Below, piece by piece: positions 4,243 to 6,407 of a DNA stretch of 6,407 nucleotides. Each line of letters opens with the position of its first letter. Position 1 is the stretch's first letter. The notes beneath the pieces were generated by a model. It saw only the letters and a program-made list of their open reading frames with translations, ran no database searches and was not told where the DNA came from. Made by a program: the position numbers and the translations under genes. The DNA comes from Inovirus M13: sequence record NC_003287.2. The stretch is one strand, 5' to 3'.

Positions 4243-5500
4243 TTTTGTTTTCTTGATGTTTGTTTCATCATCTTCTTTTGCTCAGGTAATTGAAATGAAT
4301 AATTCGCCTCTGCGCGATTTTGTAACTTGGTATTCAAAGCAATCAGGCGAATCCGTTATTGTTTCTCCCGATGTAAAAGGTACTGTTACTGTATATTCAT
4401 CTGACGTTAAACCTGAAAATCTACGCAATTTCTTTATTTCTGTTTTACGTGCTAATAATTTTGATATGGTTGGTTCAATTCCTTCCATAATTCAGAAGTA
4501 TAATCCAAACAATCAGGATTATATTGATGAATTGCCATCATCTGATAATCAGGAATATGATGATAATTCCGCTCCTTCTGGTGGTTTCTTTGTTCCGCAA
4601 AATGATAATGTTACTCAAACTTTTAAAATTAATAACGTTCGGGCAAAGGATTTAATACGAGTTGTCGAATTGTTTGTAAAGTCTAATACTTCTAAATCCT
4701 CAAATGTATTATCTATTGACGGCTCTAATCTATTAGTTGTTAGTGCACCTAAAGATATTTTAGATAACCTTCCTCAATTCCTTTCTACTGTTGATTTGCC
4801 AACTGACCAGATATTGATTGAGGGTTTGATATTTGAGGTTCAGCAAGGTGATGCTTTAGATTTTTCATTTGCTGCTGGCTCTCAGCGTGGCACTGTTGCA
4901 GGCGGTGTTAATACTGACCGCCTCACCTCTGTTTTATCTTCTGCTGGTGGTTCGTTCGGTATTTTTAATGGCGATGTTTTAGGGCTATCAGTTCGCGCAT
5001 TAAAGACTAATAGCCATTCAAAAATATTGTCTGTGCCACGTATTCTTACGCTTTCAGGTCAGAAGGGTTCTATCTCTGTTGGCCAGAATGTCCCTTTTAT
5101 TACTGGTCGTGTGACTGGTGAATCTGCCAATGTAAATAATCCATTTCAGACGATTGAGCGTCAAAATGTAGGTATTTCCATGAGCGTTTTTCCTGTTGCA
5201 ATGGCTGGCGGTAATATTGTTCTGGATATTACCAGCAAGGCCGATAGTTTGAGTTCTTCTACTCAGGCAAGTGATGTTATTACTAATCAAAGAAGTATTG
5301 CTACAACGGTTAATTTGCGTGATGGACAGACTCTTTTACTCGGTGGCCTCACTGATTATAAAAACACTTCTCAAGATTCTGGCGTACCGTTCCTGTCTAA
5401 AATCCCTTTAATCGGCCTCCTGTTTAGCTCCCGCTCTGATTCCAACGAGGAAAGCACGTTATACGTGCTCGTCAAAGCAACCATAGTACGCGCCCTGTAG
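4220..5500 (+). CDS. gIV: Gene IV (pIV, 426 aa precursor with about 21-aa signal peptide), outer-membrane secretin channel for phage extrusion
   Basis: ATG at 4220 with SD AAGG at 4208..4211; product MKLLNVINFVFLMFVSSSSFA/QVIEMNNSPLRDFVTWYSKQSG...; C-terminal half (…VPFITGR…GQTLLLGGL…VPFLSKIPLIGLLF…) looks like the secretin domain shared with GspD/PilQ. Overlaps the gene I end by 23 nt. The ORF-track start at 4181 is a TTG extension. Confidence 0.95.
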   Translation: MKLLNVINFVFLMFVSSSSFAQVIEMNNSPLRDFVTWYSKQSGESVIVSPDVKGTVTVYSSDVKPENLRNFFISVLRANNFDMVGSIPSIIQKYNPNNQDYIDELPSSDNQEYDDNSAPSGGFFVPQNDNVTQTFKINNVRAKDLIRVVELFVKSNTSKSSNVLSIDGSNLLVVSAPKDILDNLPQFLSTVDLPTDQILIEGLIFEVQQGDALDFSFAAGSQRGTVAGGVNTDRLTSVLSSAGGSFGIFNGDVLGLSVRALKTNSHSKILSVPRILTLSGQKGSISVGQNVPFITGRVTGESANVNNPFQTIERQNVGISMSVFPVAMAGGNIVLDITSKADSLSSSTQASDVITNQRSIATTVNLRDGQTLLLGGLTDYKNTSQDSGVPFLSKIPLIGLLFSSRSDSNEESTLYVLVKATIVRAL

Positions 5501-5577
5501 CGGCGCATTAAGCGCGGCGGGTGTGGTGGTTACGCGCAGCGTGACCGCTACACTTGCCAGCGCCCTAGCGCCCGCTC
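5499..5577 (+). other. Packaging (morphogenetic) signal hairpin, the first element of the intergenic region
   Basis: GC-rich imperfect inverted repeat immediately after the gene IV stop (TAG 5498..5500): gtagcggcgcattaagcgcggcggg...ccagcgccctagcgcccgctcc. Position and sequence match the Ff packaging signal also present in f1-ori phagemids. Boundaries approximate. Confidence 0.7.
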
Positions 5578-5589
5578 CTTTCGCTTTCT

Positions 5590-5760
5590 TCCCTTCCTTT
5601 CTCGCCACGTTCGCCGGCTTTCCCCGTCAAGCTCTAAATCGGGGGCTCCCTTTAGGGTTCCGATTTAGTGCTTTACGGCACCTCGACCCCAAAAAACTTG
5701 ATTTGGGTGATGGTTCACGTAGTGGGCCATCGCCCTGATAGACGGTTTTTCGCCCTTTGA
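5590..5760 (+). promoter_or_regulatory. Minus-strand (complementary-strand) replication origin, hairpins B/C; host RNA polymerase primer-synthesis site
   Basis: Structured GC-rich non-coding segment between the packaging signal and the plus-strand origin (…ggctttccccgtcaagctctaaatcgggggctccctttagggttccgatttagtgctttacggcacctcgacccc…), recognised as Ff/f1 ori sequence. Boundaries approximate. Confidence 0.6.
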
Positions 5761-5765
5761 CGTTG

Positions 5766-5910
5766 GAGTCCACGTTCTTTAATAGTGGACTCTTGTTCCA
5801 AACTGGAACAACACTCAACCCTATCTCGGGCTATTCTTTTGATTTATAAGGGATTTTGCCGATTTCGGCCTATTGGTTAAAAAATGAGCTGATTTAACAA
5901 AAATTTAACG
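5766..5910 (+). promoter_or_regulatory. Plus-strand (viral-strand) rolling-circle origin: pII nick site between 5780 and 5781, core hairpins and downstream AT-rich enhancer domain
   Basis: Inverted repeat gagtccac…gtggactc around the sequence ttcttt^aatagtggactcttgttccaaactggaacaaca, with a second small hairpin tgttccaaactggaaca. This matches the canonical Ff pII recognition/nick sequence, followed by an AT-rich region. Boundaries of the enhancer domain approximate. Confidence 0.8.
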
Positions 5911-5933
5911 CGAATTTTAACAAAATATTAACG

Positions 5934-5962
5934 TTTACAATTTAAATATTTGCTTATACAAT
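5934..5962 (+). promoter_or_regulatory. Gene II promoter (-35 TTTACA, 17-nt spacer, -10 TACAAT)
   Basis: TTTACA at 5934..5939, 17-nt spacer, TACAAT at 5957..5962, about 45 nt upstream of the gene II ATG at 6006; near-consensus sigma70 promoter. Confidence 0.65.
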
Positions 5963-6005
5963 CTTCCTGTTTTTGGGGCTTTTCTGATTATCAACCGGGG
6001 TACAT

Positions 6006-6407
6006 ATGATTGACATGCTAGTTTTACGATTACCGTTCATCGATTCTCTTGTTTGCTCCAGACTCTCAGGCAATGACCTGATAGCCTTTGTAGACCTCTC
6101 AAAAATAGCTACCCTCTCCGGCATGAATTTATCAGCTAGAACGGTTGAATATCATATTGATGGTGATTTGACTGTCTCCGGCCTTTCTCACCCTTTTGAA
6201 TCTTTACCTACACATTACTCAGGCATTGCATTTAAAATATATGAGGGTTCTAAAAATTTTTATCCTTGCGTTGAAATAAAGGCTTCTCCCGCAAAAGTAT
6301 TACAGGGTCATAATGTTTTTGGTACAACCGATTTAGCTTTATGCTCTGAGGCTTTATTGCTTAATTTTGCTAATTCTTTGCCTTGCCTGTATGATTTATT
6401 GGATGTT
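6006..6407 (+). CDS. gII: Gene II, N-terminal part (pII replication initiator nickase); partial in linear view, continues in frame at 1..831 across the circular junction
   Basis: ATG at 6006 gives MIDMLVLRLPFIDSLVCSRLSGNDLIAFVDLSKIATLSG..., the recognised pII N-terminus. It runs to the window end with no stop; 402 nt = 134 codons, so it joins frame 1 at position 1. A -35/-10 promoter lies just upstream. Confidence 0.95.
   Translation, partial: MIDMLVLRLPFIDSLVCSRLSGNDLIAFVDLSKIATLSGMNLSARTVEYHIDGDLTVSGLSHPFESLPTHYSGIAFKIYEGSKNFYPCVEIKASPAKVLQGHNVFGTTDLALCSEALLLNFANSLPCLYDLLDV

Follow-up and report, generated by a model that had tools for sequence, protein, structure and literature searches.

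The intergenic region of a wild-type-like M13 genome: packaging signal, two replication origins and gene II leader

Introduction

The closest described system for the DNA studied here is the intergenic region of the Ff filamentous phages M13, f1 and fd, known as the 'f1 origin' of Inovirus M13. What phagemids use as the 'f1 origin' consists of the minus-strand origin, the plus-strand origin and the packaging signal (PMC4403547). The plus-strand origin has a region I and a region II, the latter of which can be omitted only in combination with a gII IR1 mutant, and the cut site of pII is TTCTTT^AATA (PMC4403547). The phage protein pV leaves the packaging hairpin uncovered, and this hairpin is believed to bind the pVII/pIX cap (bioRxiv 10.1101/2022.11.03.514279).

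More distant inoviruses, namely IKe, the Erwinia PEar phages and a Klebsiella inovirus, have the same order of signals as M13: a long hairpin, then hairpins B and C, then D and E around TTT^AATA. They differ from M13 in that the packaging hairpin is unalignable with that of M13, about 100 extra nucleotides lie between C and D, the stem of E differs by a compensatory pair, and the pili and hosts are different.

Here, we compared these systems with a 6407-nt stretch of DNA (the window, meaning the whole stretch that was analysed) and in particular with its segment 5501–6005, for which an initial annotation had been made from the letters alone.

Results and Discussion

Identity of the Genome and of the Intergenic Region

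A megablast comparison with a phage collection showed that the window is a complete Ff phage genome of 6407 nt. M13 (JX412914) matched it over 6407/6407 nt in a single ungapped match with 99.8% identity, and the base-by-base comparison gave 15 substitutions and 0 indels. Whole-genome identities (megablast) were 99.0–99.2% for f1 and 97.0% for fd; relative to f1 J02448 there were 52 substitutions and no indels. All ten genes that the M13 and f1 records annotate were collinear with the window.

The intergenic segment 5501–6005 is 505 nt long, with the gene IV stop codon TAG on its left and the gene II ATG (6006) on its right; its position matches that of the M13/f1/fd region, and its length is that of M13 and f1. 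It was 100% identical to M13 JX412914 over the full 505 nt in one ungapped piece. The identity with f1 was 99.6% (ungapped), with two substitutions, T5704 (A in f1) and G5830 (T in f1), and that with fd was 95.6% (ungapped), with 22 substitutions, mostly within 5813–5933. The five hairpins, the pII cut site, the AT-rich enhancer, and the gene II promoter and leader are all common to the window and the M13/f1/fd region, and no structural differences were found between them. The features are as follows.

5498..5500, plus strand: gene IV stop codon TAG, the left intergenic boundary, overlapping the base of hairpin A
5499..5577, plus strand: hairpin A, packaging (morphogenetic) signal, 32 pairs, 69% GC
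5523..5738, plus strand: spurious ORF of 71 aa with a GTG start, not a gene
5578..5623, plus strand: C/T-rich, G-poor spacer between hairpins A and B, GC skew −0.46 to −0.51
5624..5678, plus strand: hairpin B, minus-strand (complementary-strand) origin, inverted repeat I1, fold z −4.6
5627..5818, minus strand: spurious ORF of 63 aa with a TTG start, not a gene
5705..5735, plus strand: hairpin C, minus-strand origin, 14-bp stem with 3 G-T pairs, z −4.8
5766..5792, plus strand: hairpin D, plus-strand origin, inverted repeat GAGTCCAC/GTGGACTC, 11-nt loop holding the pII nick
5793..5811, plus strand: hairpin E, plus-strand origin core, inverted repeat TTGTTCCA/TGGAACAA
5766..5819, plus strand: plus-strand origin core (region I / domain A), right-hand limit approximate
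5820..5933, plus strand: AT-rich replication enhancer (region II / domain B), uninterrupted, GC 0.18–0.33, no foreign sequence
5934..5962, plus strand: gene II promoter-like site, sigma-70-like, TTTACA-17-TACAAT, 10/12 consensus matches
5963..6005, plus strand: gene II mRNA leader, containing the run TTTTTGGGGCTTTTC and the ribosome-binding region

This segment is almost certainly the intergenic region of an M13-type Ff filamentous phage in intact, wild-type form. We are equally confident that it is a series of cis-acting DNA signals, the majority of which work on the single-stranded plus strand. The initial annotation had described a non-coding 505-nt segment carrying a packaging hairpin and both origins; the bounds, the hairpins and the near-identity to M13, f1 and fd all agree with this description.

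Wild-Type Phage or Engineered Vector

Engineered derivatives are far commoner than wild-type phage in laboratories and as contaminants of public records, and in several 'phage' or 'plasmid' records the f1 ori module is plainly vector sequence. The window could thus be an engineered derivative, that is, an M13mp-type phage, a helper phage such as M13KO7, or a phagemid. In M13mp phages the inserts sit at a HaeIII site at about 5868, within the enhancer. These phages also carry G6125T in gene II (Met40Ile, ATT), which compensates for the inserts in domain B, and the BamHI site at 2220 is missing from them. The backbone and origin of M13mp phages such as M13mp18 are common to the window.

The vector test was based on marker sequences and restriction sites, rather than on a direct alignment with M13mp18. 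The lac promoter, lac operator O1, the 5' coding part of lacZ-alpha, and the universal and reverse primer sites were absent from the whole window. Sites for EcoRI, HindIII, PstI, SalI, XbaI, KpnI, SacI, SmaI and SphI were found nowhere in it. Hence, judged by marker sequences, the window is without the lacZ-alpha and polylinker that M13mp phages carry in the enhancer. The HaeIII site GGCC lies at 5867–5870 in a contiguous context, codon 40 of pII (6123–6125) reads ATG, and a BamHI site (GGATCC) occurs at 2220. The stretch GATTTCGGCCTATTGG, which had been reported as contiguous at 5861..5875, is indeed contiguous and has a single occurrence, but its end coordinate was one base short: it spans 5861–5876.

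The length of 6407 nt is that of wild-type M13 and f1, substitutions were the only differences, and no foreign insert was found; furthermore, the ten annotated genes are collinear with M13. Because the markers are absent, the length is exactly that of the wild type and there are no indels, an M13mp-type phage, a helper phage with an intergenic insert and a phagemid are ruled out, and an engineered origin of the window can be regarded as extremely improbable. The window is therefore a wild-type-like M13 genome, rather than a cloning vector or helper phage. This upholds the earlier description of a wild-type-like phage without lacZ-alpha or polylinker, to which the absence of marker sequences, the length, codon 40 and the BamHI site all testify. 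Lac or polylinker sequence, or the loss of inverted repeats, had been named as findings that would speak against it; the former was absent and the repeats were present.

Vector-derived 'f1 ori' copies in public records span window positions 5501–5943/5944 with about 99% identity. The phagemid f1 ori (pBluescript-type) shares with the window the packaging signal, the minus-strand origin, and the plus-strand origin with its enhancer. However, it lacks the −10 element of the gene II promoter and the leader (5944–6005), both of which the window has. In addition, the module of the window is accompanied by the full set of phage genes in a complete genome, unlike the phagemid f1 ori. Thus, the statement that the whole segment is the same module as the phagemid f1 ori holds for 5501–5943/5944, the first 88%, but phagemids are without the remainder.

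Stability and Strand Preference of the Hairpins

The hairpins were folded as single-stranded DNA and compared with 200 dinucleotide-preserving shuffles. We found that all five hairpins (A–E) were more stable than the shuffles, with z from −3.6 to −5.4. For hairpins A, B, C and D and for D and E together, none of the 200 shuffles folded equally well. The folds of the plus strand were as follows.

5499–5577, plus strand: hairpin A, −28.7 kcal/mol, z −3.7
5620–5682, plus strand: hairpin B, z −4.6
5700–5740, plus strand: hairpin C, z −4.8
5766–5792, plus strand: hairpin D, z −5.4
5766–5810, plus strand: hairpins D and E together, z −6.0
5480–6010, plus strand: whole region, z −5.2
5820–5960, plus strand: AT-rich part, z +0.56, without stable structure

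Folding of 5499..5577 and 5766..5810 had been proposed as a check on the hairpins, and it confirmed both (z −3.7 and −6.0, respectively). The base composition also changes strongly along the region: the GC content was 0.69 in the packaging hairpin versus 0.28 in 5821–5960.

The two strands of hairpin A were quite different in stability, the plus strand folding with −28.7 kcal/mol (z −3.7) versus −22.1 kcal/mol (z −1.3) for the minus strand. For hairpin C the values were −10.4 kcal/mol on the plus strand versus −6.9 kcal/mol on the minus strand. G-T pairs account for 5 of the 32 pairs in hairpin A and 3 of the 14 in hairpin C. The preference of A and C for the plus strand fits signals that are read on the packaged plus-strand DNA. 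Because of their G-T pairs and their markedly better folding on the plus strand, these two hairpins are expected to act on that strand.

Hairpins D and E contain Watson-Crick pairs only, and either strand folds about equally well. This symmetry fits recognition by pII in the duplex replicative form. The covariation in D and E described below is compatible with a single-strand hairpin and with a protein-bound duplex palindrome alike.

Packaging Signal, C/T-Rich Tract and Transcription Termination

Hairpin A is strictly conserved: 0 of 77 nt differed in every one of six Ff relatives. One of the six is FfLavender, in which hairpins A and C are both unchanged even though the whole-genome identity with the window is only 90.5%. 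A long hairpin lies directly 3' of gene IV in IKe, PEar1 and the Klebsiella inovirus (z −4.1 to −4.8), and its sequence could not be aligned with hairpin A of M13. In the IKe record, the equivalent stem-loop is labelled 'morphogenetic signal'.

The spacer at 5578–5623 showed 0–2 differences among the Ff relatives. It resembles a Rho-utilisation (rut) tract, which would be consistent with the termination after gene IV that is known from the literature. Termination of transcription at this point was reportedly described by Moses and Model in 1984.

From these observations, one might suppose that the hairpins are mainly transcription terminators or RNA-level elements and not signals for DNA replication and packaging. 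The rut-like tract follows hairpin A directly, the IKe record annotates each hairpin also as 'pot. transcription termination', and the packaging signal, together with other intergenic structures, has been implicated in the termination of gene IV transcription (PMC10334589). However, our scan of the plus strand over 5400–6100 found no stem with a T run behind it, which is the pattern of an intrinsic terminator. A search of the whole window against Rfam (E ≤ 1) gave no matches in the intergenic region; there were only weak chance matches, at the gene VIII terminator (1441–1649). Function at the DNA level is further indicated by the pII cut sequence and the origin annotations of fd and IKe, as well as by the use of 5501–5943 as a replication and packaging module in phagemids (PMC4403547). 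A mainly transcriptional role of the hairpins is therefore very unlikely. We regard them as DNA signals for replication and packaging, with termination as a further role alongside these rather than in their place.

Minus-Strand Origin

We analysed the pairing of hairpin B in 13 aligned homologues from phages and plasmids. Its 19 pairs were 97.6% paired across these homologues, and 5 of the 19 change on both sides. None of 500 shuffles reached the covariation score of hairpin B, and the pairing was destroyed when the partners were slid by 1–3 columns. Hairpin C showed 0 differences in 31 nt among the six Ff relatives and was near-invariant out to IKe and the plasmid homologues. We also considered the A/T-rich outer extension of hairpin C, which appears in the minimum-energy fold, as a conserved feature and rejected it, as it was often unpaired in the homologues.

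The IKe record contains two 'minus-strand origin' stem-loops that are equivalent to hairpins B and C. We take the RNA primer of the minus strand to be templated by about 5736 down to 5717.

Plus-Strand Origin and Enhancer

The sequence TTCTTTAATAGTGGAC has a single occurrence in the window, at 5775–5790, and places the cut TTCTTT^AATA between T5780 and A5781. The 'origin of viral strand synthesis' in the fd record is fd 5782, which corresponds to window position 5781, the first base 3' of the nick (the fd numbering is one ahead of that of the window in the intergenic region, and TTTAATA begins at fd 5779). The nick at 5780/5781 that had been assigned to pII is therefore borne out: the motif is unique at 5775, and both the fd origin annotation and the published cut site (PMC4403547) agree with it.

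The stems of the core vary in a compensatory manner. In FfLilac, the top pair of hairpin D is changed to A-T, giving the variant GAGTCCAA/TTGGACTC, and the stem of hairpin D in IKe is identical to that of the window. Hairpin E of IKe has GTTGC/GCAAC for GTTCC/GGAAC, which is again a compensatory change. Two 'viral-strand origin' stem-loops are given in the IKe record, and they follow the morphogenetic and minus-strand signals in an order that matches the window.

Among the Ff relatives, the core formed by D and E showed 0–2 differences in 47 nt, and divergence rises sharply from 5813. The enhancer is the most variable part of the region among Ff phages: 11–12 of 103 positions differ in fd-type phages and 22 of 103 in FfLavender. 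In 5813–5933, the differences numbered 16–17 in fd-type phages and 34 of 121 in FfLavender.

We also searched for the IHF consensus WATCAANNNNTTR with one mismatch allowed. The genome contained 18 matches versus 11.2 ± 3.7 expected, which was not significant. Four of the 18 matches cluster at 5832–5955; this local cluster may be considered as suggestive only.

Gene II Promoter and Leader

The promoter-like site at 5934–5962 showed 0–1 differences among the Ff relatives. The leader at 5963–6005 likewise showed 0–1 differences in its 43 nt, FfLavender included, and it was unstructured when folded as DNA. The site at 5934–5962 is presumably the gene II promoter, and we take the leader to be the target of translational repression by pV. 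A pV translational operator that matches TTTTTGGGGCTTTTC was reportedly described by Michel and Zinder in 1989.

The initial annotation did not mention the gene II promoter and leader (5934–6005) or the C/T-rich tract. It was thus incomplete rather than wrong.

Two Open Reading Frames in the Intergenic Region

Two ORFs are open in the window, at 5523..5738 (plus strand) and 5627..5818 (minus strand), and the automated annotation of phage Copypasta calls the equivalent of the plus-strand ORF a 'hypothetical protein'. If one or both of them encoded small proteins, the region would not be purely non-coding.

The conservation of the ORFs was judged on full-length ungapped comparisons, for both ORFs in f1 and for the plus-strand ORF in FfLavender, where it has a 1-nt insertion; the minus-strand ORF of fd, FfIris and FfLilac was set aside as unreliable, since local alignment had trimmed ends. 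We found that the single change T5704A in f1 stops both ORFs (plus-strand codon 61, TTG to TAG; minus-strand codon 39, AAA to TAA), and f1 is fully viable although it carries this change. The insertion in FfLavender frameshifts the plus-strand ORF 5523..5738. Neither ORF product matched Pfam or PHROGs. Moreover, the starts are GTG and TTG, and the conservation tracks the hairpin boundaries, with compensatory changes in the stems, rather than a codon pattern. Small proteins encoded here are therefore highly improbable. Because both carry a stop codon in f1, the two ORFs are not genes, as had been stated when they were first listed, and they should not be called genes even though automated pipelines sometimes annotate them.

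Homologues in Other Inoviruses and in Plasmids

Outside the Ff group, homologues could be detected for one part of the intergenic region alone, the one that contains hairpins B and C (5625–5750). Homologues with 78–84% identity were found in IKe and the Erwinia PEar phages, and another was found in a 6.8-kb Klebsiella inovirus that has been deposited as a plasmid.

Homologues of the B/C part were also present in 1199 plasmid records of PLSDB (IncFII and small Col plasmids), with 74–81% identity. Stem pairing in these plasmid copies is kept by compensatory changes, and Salmonella pSLT-like plasmids match the 33-nt core of hairpin C with 100% identity. The copies in IncFII plasmids are located about 600 nt beyond repA and on the opposite strand, an orientation in which priming of the f1 type would proceed away from that gene. 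Those in plasmids of about 2.1 kb (Col(BS512) and ColpVC types) are in non-coding DNA. No B/C homologue was found in the F plasmid at E ≤ 0.01. The possibility that the plasmid copies resemble the complementary-strand origin of phage G4 was considered and rejected (best E-value 0.1–0.7, stretches of 10–17 nt).

The start of leading-strand priming in R1/R100 fits the position of the IncFII element, and the G sites of R1/R100 are reported to be primed by primase. Judged by their position, the IncFII elements may be the published 'G sites' of R1/R100. These ssi/G-site-like elements have the B/C hairpins in common with M13, and they are without a packaging signal and without a pII origin. We did not find mention of homology to the f1 minus origin in the literature that we searched on plasmid ssi and G-site elements. 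The minus-strand origin (5624–5736) and the elements in about 1200 enterobacterial plasmids form one sequence family, throughout which the covariation of the stems is preserved. It is a speculative suggestion, and rather a doubtful one, that this relationship between phage and plasmids is undescribed.

Proposed Functions of the Signals

We infer the priming, nicking, packaging and termination functions from the identity of the region with those of the experimentally characterised phages M13, f1 and fd. After infection, the host RNA polymerase would recognise hairpins B and C on the SSB-coated plus strand. The short RNA primer that it makes would allow synthesis of the minus strand and would thus lead to the double-stranded replicative form.

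In the next stage, pII is likely to bind repeats D and E of the core origin, with the AT-rich enhancer and IHF assisting, and would nick the plus strand of the replicative form between T5780 and A5781. The free 3'-OH would then support rolling-circle synthesis, and after one round pII would cut and reseal at the nick site. The new plus strand would be coated by pV, with hairpin A left exposed. Recognition of hairpin A at the membrane assembly site (pI/pXI, pVII/pIX) may then lead to packaging, in one orientation only.

Two further functions would concern transcription. The end of gene IV transcription may be aided by hairpin A and the C/T-rich tract, and 5934–6005 probably drives and regulates the expression of gene II.

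Conclusions

The intergenic region has already been fully described and itself adds nothing new; it leaves the current picture of Ff replication and packaging unaltered. As a textbook element that was recognised from sequence alone, it provides a clean calibration case. The link to plasmids is of a different kind. If it has not been described before, it would mean that filamentous phages and the plasmids in their hosts have exchanged a single ssDNA priming module. One would then also have to ask which enzyme primes the plasmid copies: RNA polymerase, as it does in f1, or primase.

Substitutions Relative to Other Ff Records

The window differs from M13 JX412914 at 15 positions, including the following:

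4453-4489: clustered differences in gene IV
4747, 4786, 5374, 5443, 1737 and 2710: further differences

Because f1 agrees with JX412914 at 13 of the 15 positions, these 13 changes are window-specific. Gene IV holds a cluster of six of them in a 37-nt stretch (4453-4489); the six are A/T swaps for the most part, and only one, N87I, alters the pIV protein. An early sequence record with errors could account for the window-specific pattern, as could strain-specific changes.

The start codon of gene III is ATG in the window (A1579). Position 1579 is G in M13 JX412914 and f1, which gives a GTG start. Across a 71-nt stretch that includes this position, each of the 27 Ff records of the phage collection has a single mismatch to the window.

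At window position 6125 (gene II codon 40), T was found in JX412914 (L003), resulting in pII Met40Ile, and G in the window and f1. The record is named 'M13 WT variety Rutgers'. In M13mp phages, 6125 T offsets the effect of insertions into the origin enhancer; thus, this 'wild-type' record may have descended from, or recombined with, a vector lineage.

Probable False Gene Calls and Probable Vector Sequence in Public Records

In Escherichia phage Copypasta (OR791786, L013 326-538), the equivalent of window ORF 5526-5738 was automatically annotated as a 'hypothetical protein', as was a second intergenic ORF that spans the record start. In both cases the gene call is very probably spurious.

At about 99% identity, the f1 ori module (window 5501-5943) recurs in public records (database hits H61-H63 and H72-H85). 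Some of these are labelled Lambdavirus lambda, Listeria phage or Escherichia phage; there are also small 'plasmids' assigned to Micromonospora, Ruficoccus, Staphylococcus, Mucilaginibacter, Aeromonas and others, and a Bacillus thuringiensis plasmid has the module beside lacZ. Such copies are most likely cloning-vector sequence.

Split Plus-Strand Origin in PEar4

The plus-strand origin of Erwinia phage PEar4 (MT901799, L007 646-760) lies in two separated halves; in IKe, the halves are contiguous. The right half (AATAGTGGACTC...GTGCTA) lies upstream of the left one (GAGTCCACTATGTTT), some 95 nt away, and the pII-type cut site TTT^AATA coincides exactly with one of the junctions. This arrangement could be an assembly artefact, or a real rearrangement that arose at the nick site.

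Minus-Origin Homologues in Plasmids

In PLSDB, 1199 plasmid records carry homologues of the minus-origin hairpins B and C (window 5625-5750), with identities of 74-81%. The loci concerned are:

L008 4001-4112 (IncFII plasmid)
L019 3001-3033
L014-L018

The pairing of hairpin B is preserved by compensatory changes across the phage and plasmid homologues, and Salmonella pSLT-like plasmids match the 33-nt hairpin C core at 100% identity. The F plasmid has no copy of the element, and the G4 origin shows no similarity to it. It is carried by IncFII plasmids and by Col-type plasmids that are small, at about 2.1 kb. In IncFII plasmids, the element is located on the strand opposite to repA, about 600 nt past that gene, and the plasmid element may be the published 'G site' of R1/R100.
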